From NCBI GenBank assembly GCA_963621825.1, contig CAVFFP010000005.1, forward strand, positions 7,417 to 71,416: a DNA stretch of 64,000 nucleotides. Direction: 5' to 3'. A program made the position numbers and the translations under genes. This document shows, one piece after another, positions 10,196 through 39,659 of this stretch. Position 1 is the first letter of the stretch. The number at the start of each line of letters is the position of its first letter. Source of the DNA: a bacterium. GTDB lineage: Bacteria; Bacillota_I; Bacilli_A; RFN20; CAG-288. The notes beneath the pieces are model-generated. The model saw nothing but the letters and a program-made list of their open reading frames with translations, had not been told where the DNA came from and ran no database searches.

Positions 10196-11545
10196 TTACA
10201 AATCAGACAGATTGAGCTGATATTTCATGTCCTGGATTTCATCTTTTCTGAAAAACATAATCATATAGATTGGAAGATAGATTTTCTTTCCGTTCTGTTC
10301 GATGTTGTTGTTTGAAAAAATATATCCTTTTTCAGTATCCGGATTATTTGCTAATAAATTATCTAATGCGTTATGCTTTTTGTAATTCTTTCCAGACTTA
10401 ATTTCTAAAGGAATCACATGACCCTTATTTTCAATCAGGAAATCAATTTCTCCTAGTTTGTTATTTTTGTAATAATACAAATTAAACCCTTTGGATGCTA
10501 ATTCTTCTGCAATAGCATTTTCATATATTGAACCAAAGTTAATATCATTCTCTTTATTTAAGATCTTTATTTGCAGATTGTTGTCCATATACATGCTTGC
10601 AAGCAATCCAACATCGCAGTGGAATAACTTAAATAGGTTTCTGGATTTGCTTAAGATCAACGGAGTCTTCGGTTCGTCTGCACAATATACCGGTAATGCA
10701 ACACCTGCATCCTTTAACCAAAGAAAGCTGTTTTCATATCGATTGAATTTTACATTCTCGTTCAGATTCTTCATTATGAATCTTTTGTTTTGATTATTCA
10801 ATTCGCTAGGTATCAGATCGAATATTTCCTTGATATAGAGTTTGTTTGCTGAATCATATTTTGCAATATCCTGTCGATATGCGTTGTTGATAGATAATTG
10901 TTCTTCGACAACTTCTTTTAGATTATTAGTCTCGATGTATTTGTTCAGAACAGAAGGCATACCGCCGACAATCAAATATAAATGGAAAGCGTCAATCAGT
11001 CTTTTATGAATGATATCGTCTACAGGGGTCAGCGTGTCGAAATTATCATGCAGCTTATCGATAACGGCTTGATTAAGTCCGTTTGCAATCAAAAATTCCT
11101 CAAAATCTATTGGAAACATTTGCAAAGAATCCATGTATCCAACGGGAATGGAACGGATATCTTTTAATTCAGTTCCAAGCAAGGATCCACTTAATATGTA
11201 TCGGTAGGATCCTTCTTCAACGAGAAATTTAATTGCAGTGATGATATTGGAACTGACTTGTACTTCATCGAGAAAGATAACTGTTTTACCCTTATATAGT
11301 TTTTTGTTTGTTAATGCGGATAAACGAAATAACAAATCATTGGAATCCACTGCGTTGTCTATTGCTTTAGCGGCAATTTCGTTTTCAAGAAGATTTAGTT
11401 CGATATAATAGTCTTCTCCTAATTCCTCTCTTAAAAATTCTCTGATGATAAATGTTTTTCCAATCTGTCTTGCACCTGTGATCAGCAACGCTTTGGTGCT
11501 GTTGTTTTTCCAATTGATGATTTTTGATTTGATTTTTCTGTACAT
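10196..11545 (-). CDS. AAA ATPase (AAA_14 type) with a DUF4143 / PD-(D/E)xK-like C-terminus (COG1373-like)
   Basis: 449 aa. Walker A is ITGARQIGKT and Walker B is IFLDEVQ. The C-terminal GEIDFLIENKGHVIPLEIKSG fits a D...E-x-K nuclease-like motif. Confidence 0.85.
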   Translation of the reverse strand: MYRKIKSKIINWKNNSTKALLITGARQIGKTFIIREFLREELGEDYYIELNLLENEIAAKAIDNAVDSNDLLFRLSALTNKKLYKGKTVIFLDEVQVSSNIITAIKFLVEEGSYRYILSGSLLGTELKDIRSIPVGYMDSLQMFPIDFEEFLIANGLNQAVIDKLHDNFDTLTPVDDIIHKRLIDAFHLYLIVGGMPSVLNKYIETNNLKEVVEEQLSINNAYRQDIAKYDSANKLYIKEIFDLIPSELNNQNKRFIMKNLNENVKFNRYENSFLWLKDAGVALPVYCADEPKTPLILSKSRNLFKLFHCDVGLLASMYMDNNLQIKILNKENDINFGSIYENAIAEELASKGFNLYYYKNNKLGEIDFLIENKGHVIPLEIKSGKNYKKHNALDNLLANNPDTEKGYIFSNNNIEQNGKKIYLPIYMIMFFRKDEIQDMKYQLNLSDL

Positions 11546-11578
11546 ATTCTTTTGATTCCTAAAACTATTTTAAAGGAG

Positions 11579-11662
11579 TTTGTCCACTTTTACAACCTTA
11601 AAATGTACTATTTTGTCCGTTTATAGAACTTTTTCAATGCCAGATTGTCCGTTTTTACAACA
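11579..11662 (-). repeat. Three direct repeats at 32-33 bp spacing upstream of ATPase gene 10196..11545
   Basis: On the coding strand the copies are TTGTAAAAACGGACAAT, TCTATAAACGGACAAAA and TTGTAAAAGTGGACAAA. The plus-strand TGTCC cores are at 11581, 11614 and 11646. The proximal copy supplies a TTGTAA -35, 17 nt upstream of a TAAAAT -10. Confidence 0.7.
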
Positions 11663-25324: not shown

Positions 25325-25370
25325 TCGCGTGGAATAGGTCAATAAATAACCTATTTTCATCAAAACAAAA

Positions 25371-25461
25371 TCAAAAGTCCCTTTAAATTTCTTAGAAAAG
25401 TGGTAAAAAGTCCCTTGATTTTTCTTAGAAATCTATTGAAAAGTCCCTTTAAATTTCTTAT
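25371..25461 (+). repeat. Three direct repeats at 33 bp spacing upstream of ATPase gene 25510..26865
   Basis: The copies are TCAAAAGTCCCTTTAAATTTCTTAG (25371), GTAAAAAGTCCCTTGATTTTTCTTAG (25403) and TTGAAAAGTCCCTTTAAATTTCTTAT (25436). The AAAAGTCCCT cores are at 25373, 25406 and 25439. The last copy abuts or overlaps a TATATT/TATATA -10 (25470-25477). Confidence 0.75.
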
Positions 25462-25509
25462 ATTCTAGTTATATATTCTCTTTGAATTCAATTGAAAGAG
25501 GTGAATGGT

Positions 25510-26865
25510 ATGTATTTCAAAAGAAAAATAGATGAACAATTGGACACCTGGCTAAAGAAGGAAAATAAAACACCGGCATTAGTGGTCGGTATCAGACAAT
25601 GTGGAAAAACGGAAGCCATTAGAGAGTTTGCAAAAAGAAACAAGCTTCAATTACTCGAAATGAATTTTTGGACAAACCCGAATTACTGCTCCGATTTCGA
25701 TAACGAACTAGATGTTGATACTATTATTTCCAATATTTCTTTGCGTTTTCCGCAAGTGAATTTCAGTTCTAAGAATCTTTTGCTATTCTTTGATGAGATT
25801 CAGGATTGTCCTAAAGCAAGATTGTCCTTTAAAAATTTCAAAAATGATGGAAGGTATCTTGTTATCGGTAGCGGTTCGTATTTAGGTGTTAATGGATATG
25901 TTGTTGGAGATACAACTCCTACTCCGATTGGATATGAGGATGTTTTTCATATGAAAACGATGGATTTTGAAGAATTCCTCTTAGCTACTGGGTACAAACA
26001 GGATCAGATTGATTCTCTTGTCTCATACTTTGTAATGAAGAAACCGATTCCGGAGAACGTTAACCAGAATTATAAAAATCTTTTTTTGAAATATGCATGC
26101 ATCGGCGGTTTCCCAAAAGTGGTAAAGGAATATCTAAAGACTTCTCGTATTGTTGATGCATATCGGGTGCTGTCTAGCACAATATTCGATATGAAGAGTG
26201 ATTTCGGAAGAAGAAAGGATAAAAATGATAATCCGGTCTTCAAATCTGCAGAGGTTTCTAGAATTCAGAATGTATTTGATTTGATTCCTACCTTCCTATC
26301 AAAGGAAAACAAGCGCTTCGTTGTTTCAAAGGTTCCCGGTGGATCTCAATATGATAAGAATGATGCAATTGAATATCTAAGACAGTCTCATATCATATCG
26401 AAAGTCTACAACCTTGAAGTTCCAACATTGCCTTTATCTGGTCAAAAGATTGAGACGCAGTTCAAATTATTCCCGGAGGATATCGGAATTGTGACAGCAA
26501 TGTATGGAATAGATACTGTTGCTGCTATCAATAAGGGAGAACTCGGATTAGGAAAGGGAGCAATATACGAAGCGCTTGTTTTTGATTCTCTGATCAAAGC
26601 CGGAATTGAACCTTACTATTTTGCAAAAACGACCGGATTGGAAATCGATTTTGTCATTTCTTATCAAGGTTATGCAACCTTGATTGAATCCAAAGCGACT
26701 ACTGGAAATACAAAATCGAGCAAAACAGTAATGAGGCATCCGGAACATTATGGAAAGACAAAGCTTATTAAGATTGGTGATTATAATATTAGTGAAAAGG
26801 ATGATATCATCACGATGCCTCATTATCTGACATTCGTATTAGGGAAATCAGAATATGATTTCTGA
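25510..26865 (+). CDS. AAA ATPase (AAA_14 type) with a DUF4143 / PD-(D/E)xK-like C-terminus
   Basis: The ATG at 25510 follows the RBS GAAAGAGGTGA. Walker A is VVGIRQCGKT and Walker B is LFFDEIQ. The C-terminus is LEIDFVISYQGYATLIESK. Confidence 0.85.
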   Translation: MYFKRKIDEQLDTWLKKENKTPALVVGIRQCGKTEAIREFAKRNKLQLLEMNFWTNPNYCSDFDNELDVDTIISNISLRFPQVNFSSKNLLLFFDEIQDCPKARLSFKNFKNDGRYLVIGSGSYLGVNGYVVGDTTPTPIGYEDVFHMKTMDFEEFLLATGYKQDQIDSLVSYFVMKKPIPENVNQNYKNLFLKYACIGGFPKVVKEYLKTSRIVDAYRVLSSTIFDMKSDFGRRKDKNDNPVFKSAEVSRIQNVFDLIPTFLSKENKRFVVSKVPGGSQYDKNDAIEYLRQSHIISKVYNLEVPTLPLSGQKIETQFKLFPEDIGIVTAMYGIDTVAAINKGELGLGKGAIYEALVFDSLIKAGIEPYYFAKTTGLEIDFVISYQGYATLIESKATTGNTKSSKTVMRHPEHYGKTKLIKIGDYNISEKDDIITMPHYLTFVLGKSEYDF

Positions 26866-37304: not shown

Positions 37305-37964
37305 ATGTTTGAGGATAAAAGAGGAAATGTGTCGGAGTATGATATCGATACGATAAAAGAGGATATCTCTTCTCCTTTGAAAGGGAAGAATATCTGTTTT
37401 TTAGGTTCCTCTGTAACGAAGGGATTTGGATCCTTGGATGTCTCTTTTCCAGAATTCCTATCTAAGGAATGCGGAATCACATTCTTGAAAGAGGCGAAAA
37501 ACGGAACAACATTAGTCAATGAGGGTGAGGATTCATATGTAAGTCGATTATATCGCATCGATAAAAAGAATCGCTTTGATTGCTTTGTCGTTCAGTTATC
37601 GACCAATGATGCATCCAAAGGAAAAGAACTAGGAAAAGCGGATGACATTGATGATAAGTCAATATGTGGTGCTATCAATACAATCATTTCCTATATTGAA
37701 GAAAATTATCATTGTCCTATCCTTTTCTATACGAATCCGTATTATGAGATGGAGAACTATAAGTGTATGGTCTCATTATTGCATGAGATAGAAAAGAACA
37801 GAAAAATATACGTCTTAGATTTATTCAATGATAAAGAATTCAACAGCGAACTAAACAAAGATAAAGATCTTTACATGGTAGACGATATTCATCCTTCTAA
37901 GGCTGGATATCGTCTTATTACTCATAAAATGAAGGAAGCTTTAACTGTTATTTTAGGAAAATAG
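37305..37964 (+). CDS. SGNH/GDSL-family hydrolase (probable carbohydrate esterase)
   Basis: The ATG at 37305 follows the RBS GAAGGAGAAAG, and a TATAAT lies at 37274-37279. Block I is ICFLGSSVTKG, block III is LSTNDA, and block V is DDIHPSKAGY. Confidence 0.7.
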   Translation: MFEDKRGNVSEYDIDTIKEDISSPLKGKNICFLGSSVTKGFGSLDVSFPEFLSKECGITFLKEAKNGTTLVNEGEDSYVSRLYRIDKKNRFDCFVVQLSTNDASKGKELGKADDIDDKSICGAINTIISYIEENYHCPILFYTNPYYEMENYKCMVSLLHEIEKNRKIYVLDLFNDKEFNSELNKDKDLYMVDDIHPSKAGYRLITHKMKEALTVILGK

Positions 37965-38140
37965 ATATAAGTTCTATTTTCGTAAAATAGTAATATGTTT
38001 TCGTAATCGATTGAAAAATGGATTCTTGCTTATACGATACCTGGGAAACCCAAGAGCAAGAATCAAAAGATATGCCCGAAAGAAGATAGATAAACATATA
38101 GTGACGCAAAAGTAAAAAGAACAATAAAACGCCTTGATGG

Positions 38141-38223
38141 TGCAAAAATGGTGGTTTTGAGGATAACTGATGCCGCAAAAATGGCGGTTTTGGCTTCAAA
38201 TCATGTTGTAAAAATGGTAATAT
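38141..38223 (+). repeat. Three direct repeats at exactly 33 bp spacing upstream of ATPase gene 38250..39584
   Basis: The copies are TGCAAAAATGGTGGTTTTG (38141), CGCAAAAATGGCGGTTTTG (38174) and TGTAAAAATGGTAATAT (38207). The proximal copy contains the extended -10 TGgTAATAT (38215-38223). Confidence 0.75.
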
Positions 38224-38249
38224 ATAGTCAAATAAAGTGAGGCTGTATT

Positions 38250-39584
38250 ATGTTCAGAAGAAAAGTTTATGATGAACTTACCGAATGGAAGAATACGTTA
38301 TCGGGAAGATATGTGGCATTATTGGAGGGTGCAAGGCGAGTTGGAAAATCCACTATTGCAGAAGAATTTGCAAAGAACAACTATAAATCTTATATTCTTA
38401 TCGATTTTTCAAAACTGACAAAAGAGGAAGAGGAAGCGTTTGAGGATATCAATAATCTGGACTTCTTTTTTATGAGATTGCAGGCGATAAGGAATGTGAA
38501 GCTTGAACGAAGAAATTCCGTCATCATTTTTGATGAAATTCAGTTTGCCCCTAAGGTAAGACAGGCGATTAAACATTTAGTCAAAGATGGTCGATATGAT
38601 TATATTGAGACTGGTTCTCTGATTTCTATTAAAAGGAATGTACAGGATATCCTGATACCATCGGAAGAGCATAAGATATCTGTATATCCGATGGATTATG
38701 AAGAATTCTGTTGGGCTATCGGGTACGATTACGATATTTTGAAGCAAGTGAGCGGACATAAAGGACCACTTGGTCAGGCAACGAATCGAAAACTGATGAG
38801 AGATTTCAGTTTATATATGGCTGTTGGCGGCATGCCTCAGGCTGTCGATGCCTATCTTAGAGAAAAGAATCTGAATGAGGTAGATAGGATAAAAAGAGAT
38901 ATTCTGAGTCTTTATCATGATGATTTCTATAAGATTGACAATAGCGGACGATTATCTGCTTTATTTGATGCCATCCCTAGTCAGCTTGCTAATAATAATA
39001 AGTTCTACATAACGAAGGTCACTGAAAAAAAGATAACAGAAAGAGACTTGGAGAATATTTATAACCTGATTGATTCGAAAACTGTCTTGCCATGCTATAA
39101 AGTCAATGATCCGTCCTTATCCTTGAACGCCACAAAGAATCTGAATGATTTCAAACTCTATCTGTCTGATATCGGTTTGTTTACGACAGTGTTATTTCAA
39201 GACAGGATGCTCTATAATGAGAACATCTATGCGAAGCTTCTATCGGATAAACTAGATGTCAATCTAGGTTATCTATATGAGAACGCGATGGCTCAGATTA
39301 TAAAATCGACGAATAGAGATCTTTATTTCTATACGTTCAAAAACGAAAACAAGACTCATTCTTTTGAAATTGATTTTCTTACTACTGACAGAAGCAAAGT
39401 CGTTCCTATAGAGGTTAAGTCATCCAATGTAAGAAATCATAAGTCTATCAATGAATTTATGTTGAAGTATTCGAATAAAATATCTAGAAGCATTTTATTT
39501 TCTCAAGATGATATTTCAAATGATGGAGCACTAGAACTGAAACCGATGTATTTAGCAGAAATAATCCTTTCTACATTGAAGTAA
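38250..39584 (+). CDS. AAA ATPase (AAA_14 type) with a DUF4143 / PD-(D/E)xK-like C-terminus
   Basis: 444 aa. Walker A is LEGARRVGKST and Walker B is IIFDEIQ. The C-terminus is FEIDFLTTDRSKVVPIEVKSS. Confidence 0.85.
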   Translation: MFRRKVYDELTEWKNTLSGRYVALLEGARRVGKSTIAEEFAKNNYKSYILIDFSKLTKEEEEAFEDINNLDFFFMRLQAIRNVKLERRNSVIIFDEIQFAPKVRQAIKHLVKDGRYDYIETGSLISIKRNVQDILIPSEEHKISVYPMDYEEFCWAIGYDYDILKQVSGHKGPLGQATNRKLMRDFSLYMAVGGMPQAVDAYLREKNLNEVDRIKRDILSLYHDDFYKIDNSGRLSALFDAIPSQLANNNKFYITKVTEKKITERDLENIYNLIDSKTVLPCYKVNDPSLSLNATKNLNDFKLYLSDIGLFTTVLFQDRMLYNENIYAKLLSDKLDVNLGYLYENAMAQIIKSTNRDLYFYTFKNENKTHSFEIDFLTTDRSKVVPIEVKSSNVRNHKSINEFMLKYSNKISRSILFSQDDISNDGALELKPMYLAEIILSTLK

Positions 39585-39586
39585 AA

Positions 39587-39636
39587 AAAGACTGATCTTC
39601 TATAGGACTTTGATAACCTATATTAGATCAGTCTTT
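39587..39636. terminator. Long hairpin between convergent genes, a probable bidirectional terminator
   Basis: AAAGACTGATC (39587-39597) pairs with GATCAGTCTTT (39626-39636). Inner pairing TATAGG/CCTATA is also possible. TCTGTTT follows on the plus strand and a T-run follows on the minus strand. Confidence 0.55.
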
Positions 39637-39659
39637 TCTGTTTGACTTATAAAATGAGA

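Follow-up and report, generated by a model that had tools for sequence, protein, structure and literature searches.

The ATPase-nuclease gene at 38250–39584 of the window—the whole 64-kb stretch of DNA analyzed here—is preceded by three phased 33-bp direct repeats that overlap its predicted promoter, and comparable arrays stand upstream of most homologous genes surveyed. Such an array is very probably under selection as a protein-binding element dedicated to its gene. With less assurance, and from sequence comparison, we lean toward reading it as a private operator that the encoded protein would bind cooperatively and through which it would autorepress its own gene.

The three copies that a sequence-only reading had reported at 38141 (TGCAAAAATGGTGGTTTTG), 38174 (CGCAAAAATGGCGGTTTTG), and 38207 (TGTAAAAATGGTAATAT) are confirmed by the window letters. 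A repeat search resolves them into three in-register 33-nt units spanning 38135–38233, with start-to-start distances of 33 and 33. The units, the gene that they precede (paralog 3 of three in the window), and its expression signals are as follows.

38135–38167, plus strand: repeat unit 1, with box GTGCAAAAATGGTGGTTTTGA at 38140–38160, then a 12-nt spacer.
38168–38200, plus strand: repeat unit 2, with box CCGCAAAAATGGCGGTTTTGG at 38173–38193; 73% identical to unit 1.
38201–38233, plus strand: repeat unit 3 (proximal), with box TTGTAAAAATGGTAATATATA at 38206–38226; 64% identical to unit 1.
38215–38223, plus strand: extended −10 element TGgTAATAT inside box 3; predicted promoter.
38236–38242, plus strand: Shine-Dalgarno-like AGTGAGG, read from the letters, ending 7 nt before the ATG.
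38250–39584, plus strand: ATPase-nuclease gene (paralog 3), 444 aa, AAA_14 + DUF4143, PADLOC PDC-S01.

This three-copy repeat is real and non-random. Its core, AAAAATGGYRRT, has three occurrences in the 64 kb, all of them within the array, against 0.15 expected, and none of 100 shuffles reached three. Within the 200 nt upstream of the ATG, the best 16-nt self-match is 15/16 at lag 33; 200 dinucleotide shuffles of those 200 nt averaged 11.8 and peaked at 14. Unit 3 departs from units 1 and 2 in its 3′ half, which carries the −10 element. The spacing is exactly 33 bp, as had been stated, but the accompanying proposal that all copies share one helix face holds only approximately: 33 bp corresponds to 3.14 turns of 10.5-bp B-DNA, which turns successive sites by ~50 degrees relative to each other.

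Several nearby candidates were set aside. The octamer AAAAATGG does occur at 38014, where a further copy had been noted, but it is no member of the array: It lies in flanking sequence alignable to L135, a relative with another gene at this site, and it was rejected as a fourth box. Across the window the octamer is unenriched (7 found vs. 5.4 expected). A 13-mer at 37984 that resembles box 3 lies in the same L135-homologous flank and was likewise rejected. In box 2, a terminator scan picks out a 5-bp hairpin with Ts after it; because box 1 is unable to form it and relatives lack it, we regard this hairpin as incidental. An Rfam scan of 37800–38400 at E values up to 1 returned zero RNA elements. 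Because the array precedes the −10 element in most loci, a DNA-level role is preferred over an RNA element.

The comparative survey covered 80 loci, one genome per species, whose proteins are 53–60% identical to paralog 3 and which derive from Lachnospiraceae, Treponema and other spirochaetes, Fibrobacter, Bacteroidaceae, Selenomonadales, Erysipelotrichales, and other taxa. For the 76 loci with at least 200 nt upstream, we scored the best self-match with all lags from 12 to 69 allowed. The best lag was 32–34 in 60 loci and 66 in a further 13—73 of the 76 in total—and the score exceeded all 50 shuffles in 62/76. The control set was 127 further upstream regions, mostly non-coding, taken from these loci: Thirteen reached 13/16, at scattered lags, and three fell at lag 32 or 66, two of which precede further DUF4143 paralogs (28–31% identical). 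The search for phased repeats upstream of orthologues, which the sequence-only reading had proposed as a check, thus finds them in 73/76 loci vs. 3/127 controls (Fisher P ~ 2e-47, a value that overstates independence because the loci are phylogenetically related, though their words differ). The repeat was also found in 13/14 metagenomic relatives of paralog 2 and in 25/31 loci on IMG/VR contigs. Loci L103–L134, 32 in number, lie on contigs classed as viral, which may be phage, prophage flank, or misclassified host, and encode proteins 42–53% identical; most carry arrays.

Aligned in a common register, the units read nnTTGAAgAAA, then a variable word of 6–8 nt and a T-rich tail. With the promoter-proximal copy left out of the calculation, within-array identity was 0.70–0.99 over the 19 box positions vs. 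0.34–0.55 over the 11–12 spacer positions, the latter equal to the between-locus background (0.26–0.49). The word is private to each array: It is 0.72–0.85 identical within an array and 0.25–0.46 identical between loci. Random spacers combined with a maintained box and period indicate that the copies are old and under selection, not products of recent duplication. Arrays mostly hold three or four copies and range from one to six or seven, the largest (6–7 copies) including those of L006 and L047. Six loci (L016, L017, L022, L029, L035, and L051) have a box with an extra A (TTGTAAAAAACTGCTCC) and a 34-bp period throughout, and the period appears to tolerate 32–34 bp and to be inherited along with the unit. 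At L048 a microsatellite-like tandem run of GCTGGTAT(G) abuts the array ~100–160 nt before the ATG.

The boxes are tied to one end and one strand of the gene. We counted 183 within 320 nt upstream on the gene's strand vs. 7 elsewhere in 464 kb on both strands, and in the same 464 kb, both strands, no inverted boxes occur at the far gene end. Transposon ends were rejected as an explanation, since neither direct nor inverted boxes lie at the far end of the gene. The exception among 71 loci is L055, the sole one with boxes on that side: two, on the gene's strand and 33 bp apart, at 20 and 53 nt after the ATPase stop.

The proximal box in turn overlaps the predicted promoter. In most loci it supplies the −35 element plus spacer, reading TTGAAG or TTGAAA, 16–17 nt, and then a −10 element (e.g., TTGAAG-17-TATAAC and TTGAAA-17-TAAAAT). 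In the sub-clade closest to paralog 3, the −10 element falls within the proximal box. A subset of loci carries one extra box directly downstream of the −10, 43–45 nt before the ATG. Bacteroidota-type loci place the proximal box over a −33 TTTG, followed by a −7 TAnnTTTG motif; because the box–promoter overlap is kept there, the arrangement survives a change of promoter grammar. The sites thus lie on the core promoter of their own gene, the promoters being predicted, as expected of the operator class, and in every layout a protein on the proximal box would compete with RNA polymerase.

For paralog 3 itself, the extended −10 TGgTAATAT described earlier for the proximal copy is present, with 26 nt between its end and the ATG at 38250. 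An 80%-identical homologue (L082) has TGgTATAAT at the equivalent position. Where relatives have their −35 and −10 elements, paralog 3 offers weak hexamers (CCGCAA-17-TCAAAT; TTGTAA-16-TCAAAT), so the promoter assignment draws solely on the extended −10, which is the best candidate as a prediction. A promoter scan requiring both hexamers found none at the array and one site elsewhere, at 38011. The contrast between boxes and spacers, the upstream and strand restriction, and the core-promoter overlap together support the earlier reading of these repeats as an ordered set of binding sites for a protein, linked to this gene.

An improbable alternative is that the ATPase never reads the boxes, which would instead be tandem duplications of a promoter module (−35 + spacer + −10 + 4 nt, ~33 bp) persisting by slippage, or sites for RNA polymerase or a host factor that set promoter strength in an UP-like manner. 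The shared box half TTGAAG/TTGAAA is a −35-like hexamer, and copies farther upstream frequently retain a degenerate −10-like hexamer 17 nt on (GTATGT, GTATAC, and TATAAC at L038). Strain differences also show that units can be gained or lost whole: L081, whose protein is 98% identical and whose synteny is GH3, GDSL esterase, ATPase, TetR, TetR, GH43, lacks exactly one 33-bp unit, equivalent to unit 2 (38168–38200), which points to copy-number shifts by unit-length slippage or unequal exchange. In this close comparison the boxes are no better kept than their flanks (4 changes per 42 nt vs. ~14 per 250 nt, a hand count of small numbers). Over the wider survey, however, the spacers are randomized while boxes and the 32–34-bp period are held, as in old, selected copies, and other upstream regions of the same genomes lack such repeats. 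At paralog 3, boxes 1 and 2 have lost the TTG (reading GTG and CCG) but keep the word.

Period and word also speak against this alternative. In L138 (6010–7490), and also L139 and L140, a 423-aa DUF4143 gene of another subfamily follows the second TetR gene and is preceded by three ACGTCCAAATGAAGGA copies upstream of TTGACT; the period there is 23 bp, vs. 33 bp, so that the period differs by subfamily and the repeats of this sister lie upstream of its −35. The word, for its part, differs between paralogs of the same genome and between clades, excluding a common host factor. The window itself contains two more AAA_14 + DUF4143 genes, at 10196–11545 (minus strand) and 25510–26865 (plus strand), 27–32% identical to paralog 3, each with its own array.

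11575–11660, minus strand: paralog 1 array, three boxes TTGTAAAAACGGACAA whose starts, at 11660, 11628, and 11595, are 32 and 33 apart.
25370–25464, plus strand: paralog 2 array, three boxes (T)TGAAAAGTCCCTTtAAATTTCTTA / TTGAAAAGTCCCTTTAAATTTCTTA whose starts, at 25370, 25403, and 25436, are 33 and 33 apart.

At paralog 1 the copy nearest the gene provides a −35-like TTGTAA, 17 nt, and TAAAAT; at paralog 2 it provides a −35-like TTGAAA, 17 nt, and TATATT. One genome therefore holds three gene–array pairs of shared geometry with three differing words.

This within-genome divergence bears on the identity of the binder, because a general host factor cannot read a word that differs between paralogs of one cell. 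Nor is there a conserved partner gene: The most widely shared neighbor family reaches no more than 8 of 77 loci, none stands at a fixed position, and close homologues (72–80% identity) sit among unrelated genes. A paralog-specific word without a conserved neighbor makes the ATPase itself the obvious candidate binder. Word distance correlates with protein distance (r = 0.67), a correlation that cis-linkage alone would give. Pairwise partial correlations, entropy-corrected mutual information, and alignment inspection were used to examine covariation further; with global distance controlled, the ATPase core shows no signal, which is instead concentrated toward the C-terminal half, peaking at residues 309–328 and 392–403 (z ~ 2) and more weakly at 211–250. 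We claim no residue-to-base code, as every C-terminal segment changes together with clade.

The encoded protein combines an ATPase with a nuclease-like module. Paralog 3 belongs to PF13173 (AAA_14; E = 7e-23, residues 22–154) and PF13635 (DUF4143; E = 5e-17, residues 227–392), and it matches the PADLOC model PDLC04792 over its full length (E = 4e-97, residues 1–439); each of the three window paralogs is matched along its whole length by PDC-S01 models (E = 1e-97 to 1e-183). Walker A spans G27–K33 and Walker B D95–E96, with G27, G32, K33, D95, and E96 invariant across 80 sequences, as are the nuclease-like residues D375, E388, and K390. A sequence search found no solved structure for paralog 3. 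An AlphaFold (AF2) model (pLDDT 87, pTM 0.88) predicts the following regions.

Residues 1–145: AAA+ core.
Residues 150–229: lid.
Residues 234–305: winged-helix-like region, with helices 234–247 and 264–275 and β-hairpin 279–305.
Residues ~340–432: PD-(D/E)XK-like α/β domain.

Among solved structures, the best Foldseek matches are DNA-bound archaeal Orc1/Cdc6 proteins (2v1u and 2qby; E ~ 2e-6), a similarity of low TM-score (0.29) and ~13% sequence identity; ORC subunits, MuB, TnsC, and STAND NTPases follow. The predicted fold thus appears most like archaeal Orc1/Cdc6, with a PD-(D/E)XK nuclease-like domain in addition. By sequence, paralog 3 has zero matches to Cdc6/Orc1 Pfam and NCBIfam models and falls outside that family. 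The helix at the canonical recognition position (residues 264–275) is acidic, which leaves the nuclease-like module, the second option named by the sequence-only reading, as a possible DNA reader beside the winged helix.

The resemblance invites comparison with initiators. Orc1/Cdc6 initiators bind repeated DNA elements adjoining their own gene, and the order of AAA+ core, lid, and winged helix is common to them and the paralog 3 model. The paralog 3 protein differs in its extra PD-(D/E)XK-like domain, and its boxes form direct repeats in strict phase over a promoter, whereas ORB elements have irregular spacing and are often inverted about an unwinding element; the window also has several arrays close together on one chromosome. 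DnaA boxes and plasmid Rep-iteron systems (pSC101, F, P1, and R6K) present a regulatory parallel, in that the initiator occupies an array of direct repeats close to the gene encoding it and so represses that gene's promoter, with binding that is cooperative and, for DnaA, ATP dependent. Iteron words are plasmid specific, much as the window words are paralog specific. The Rep fold (WH1-WH2), however, differs from that of paralog 3, and the periods differ as well: ~22 bp for iterons and 9-mers for DnaA boxes vs. 32–34 bp for these arrays and 23 bp in the sister subfamily. DnaA and Rep systems are replicative, with Rep autorepression acting through inverted half-sites, whereas the array shows no origin sign. 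In Lrp-family and ParR/parC arrays, equally spaced sites are filled cooperatively and the promoter-proximal site autorepresses; their binders are unrelated small RHH or HTH proteins without an ATPase or nuclease domain.

A reading of the repeats as true replication-origin iterons, or as a partition site of plasmid or phage type, is very improbable. Phased direct repeats do adjoin an initiator-like AAA+ gene whose best structural matches are origin-bound Orc1/Cdc6. Three arrays with differing words nonetheless lie within 27 kb, among chromosomal carbohydrate-utilization genes (glycoside hydrolase, ABC transporter, and regulator), and they sit exactly on the gene's promoter. Paralog 3 is no member of the Rep, DnaA, Cdc6, or ParB families by Pfam and NCBIfam, and at the array we saw no partner gene, no adjacent AT-rich unwinding element, and no inverted box pair. 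Of the Rep gene, AT-rich unwinding element, and replicon context that mark plasmid or phage iterons, none was seen at the array.

Under the operator reading that we favor, the ATPase-nuclease would recognize a box of ~19 bp that joins a clade-shared 5′ half, TTGnAAnAA, to a private 3′ word of 6–8 nt—TGGYGG / TGGTAA at paralog 3. Monomers would align head to tail on the 33-bp direct repeats, probably touching as AAA+ protomers do. Occupancy would then spread to the proximal, most divergent box and cover a core promoter element: the extended −10 in the paralog 3 sub-clade and the −35 plus spacer in most relatives. Once enough protein had accumulated, the gene would be turned off, giving negative autoregulation with a cooperative threshold. 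We infer the ATPase as binder, its cooperative or ATP-dependent binding, and the repressive outcome.

We also weighed whether the array might be mainly a loading, parking, or assembly platform for the protein, for instance as a poised immune sensor or effector, with any effect on transcription a by-product; a variant would make it a site for the maintenance or spread of a single-gene cassette. We judge this unlikely, though several features fit it. Nuclease and ATPase motifs are both invariant, the fold resembles Orc1/Cdc6, MuB, and TnsC, all of which assemble on DNA, and the clade spans phyla at 53–60% identity. Arrays of up to 6–7 copies exceed the need of simple repression, and copy number varies between near-identical strains. 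Against this, the proximal box sits on the core promoter in nearly every locus despite the change of promoter type, which is a regulatory signature; boxes are missing from the other gene end and inverted copies are absent, unlike at transposon ends; and one PDC-S01 gene in E. coli B gave no protection against T4, T5, or T7 (bioRxiv 10.1101/2024.09.26.614923).

The genomic site itself is variable. We compared window 37965–39659 with L138:4669–4705, L135:4667–5173, and L137:4539–4701. In L138–L140, more distant relatives that keep the GH3-GDSL-TetR-TetR order, the GDSL and TetR genes are separated by a 35-nt hairpin alone (L138:4669–4705), and L135:4667–5173 carries an AlbA_2/Schlafen-like gene at the equivalent GDSL–TetR site. 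A site that is empty, AlbA_2-filled, or, in the window and L081, DUF4143-filled marks array plus gene as an accessory cassette in a variable spot, and it looks like a small accessory-gene hotspot. Presence or absence of the cassette at one site in related genomes, with other accessory genes there, fits the platform reading. To the right of the ATPase gene lies the following feature.

39590–39637, no strand assigned: long hairpin GACTGATCT...AGATCAGTC then TTTT, separating the stop codons of the ATPase gene and the convergent TetR gene.

This hairpin, read from the letters, probably terminates transcription in both directions and marks the cassette's right end. On the left, window 37944–38021 aligns with L135, and the homology stops right after TTGAAAAAT(G/A)G. 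For insertion borders at the nucleotide level, the empty-site relatives have diverged too far.

Additional sequence features cluster around the left junction. The L135 homology ends exactly at a box-like TTGAAAAATGG (38011–38021). A perfect 10-bp inverted repeat, GATTCTTGCT / AGCAAGAATC, starts at the same junction, occupying 38021–38030 and 38055–38064 around a 24-nt loop. Downstream of the GDSL stop, two direct (A/G)TTTTCGTAA copies lie 22 nt apart at window 37976–38006; they are conserved in L135:4700–4740, upstream of the AlbA_2-type gene, and the pair is possibly a remnant operator or promoter of a gene formerly at the site.

The family to which these genes belong is abundant and thinly characterized. 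PDC-S01, an ATPase fused to a PD-(D/E)XK domain, has been described as ranking fourth in frequency among "defense" systems of prokaryotes (PMC12988326; PMC3424549), with DUF4143 listed among PD-(D/E)XK families (PMC3424549), and it has been reported as the most frequent single locus in rumen genomes. Its standing is that of a guilt-by-embedding defense candidate only (PMC12988326). The window paralogs share with PDC-S01/COG1373 both Pfam domains and the single-gene organization. A full-text literature search on DUF4143, COG1373, and PDC-S01 found no description of the array architecture, in agreement with the sequence-only reading, which was aware of none for this family. The published PDC-S01/DUF4143 work that we found comprises censuses and PD-(D/E)XK classification and describes no upstream repeats, DNA binding, or regulation.

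A broader proposal, tentative and on the doubtful side, is that PDC-S01/DUF4143 proteins form a large family of sequence-specific, ATP-driven, Orc1-like nucleases whose specificity can be read from the array word. The array would then be a platform for head-to-tail oligomers, serving for autorepression and also as the place where an immune or selfish single-gene cassette rests or marks itself, and paralogs of one genome would be orthogonal protein–DNA pairs. For the family, the array offers a first concrete molecular handle on PDC-S01: a predicted native DNA ligand for each member and a putative natural set of orthogonal protein–site pairs, three of them in the window. The likely control logic would be cooperative autorepression of a potentially toxic nuclease, and counting PDC-S01 genes as defense systems may be premature.
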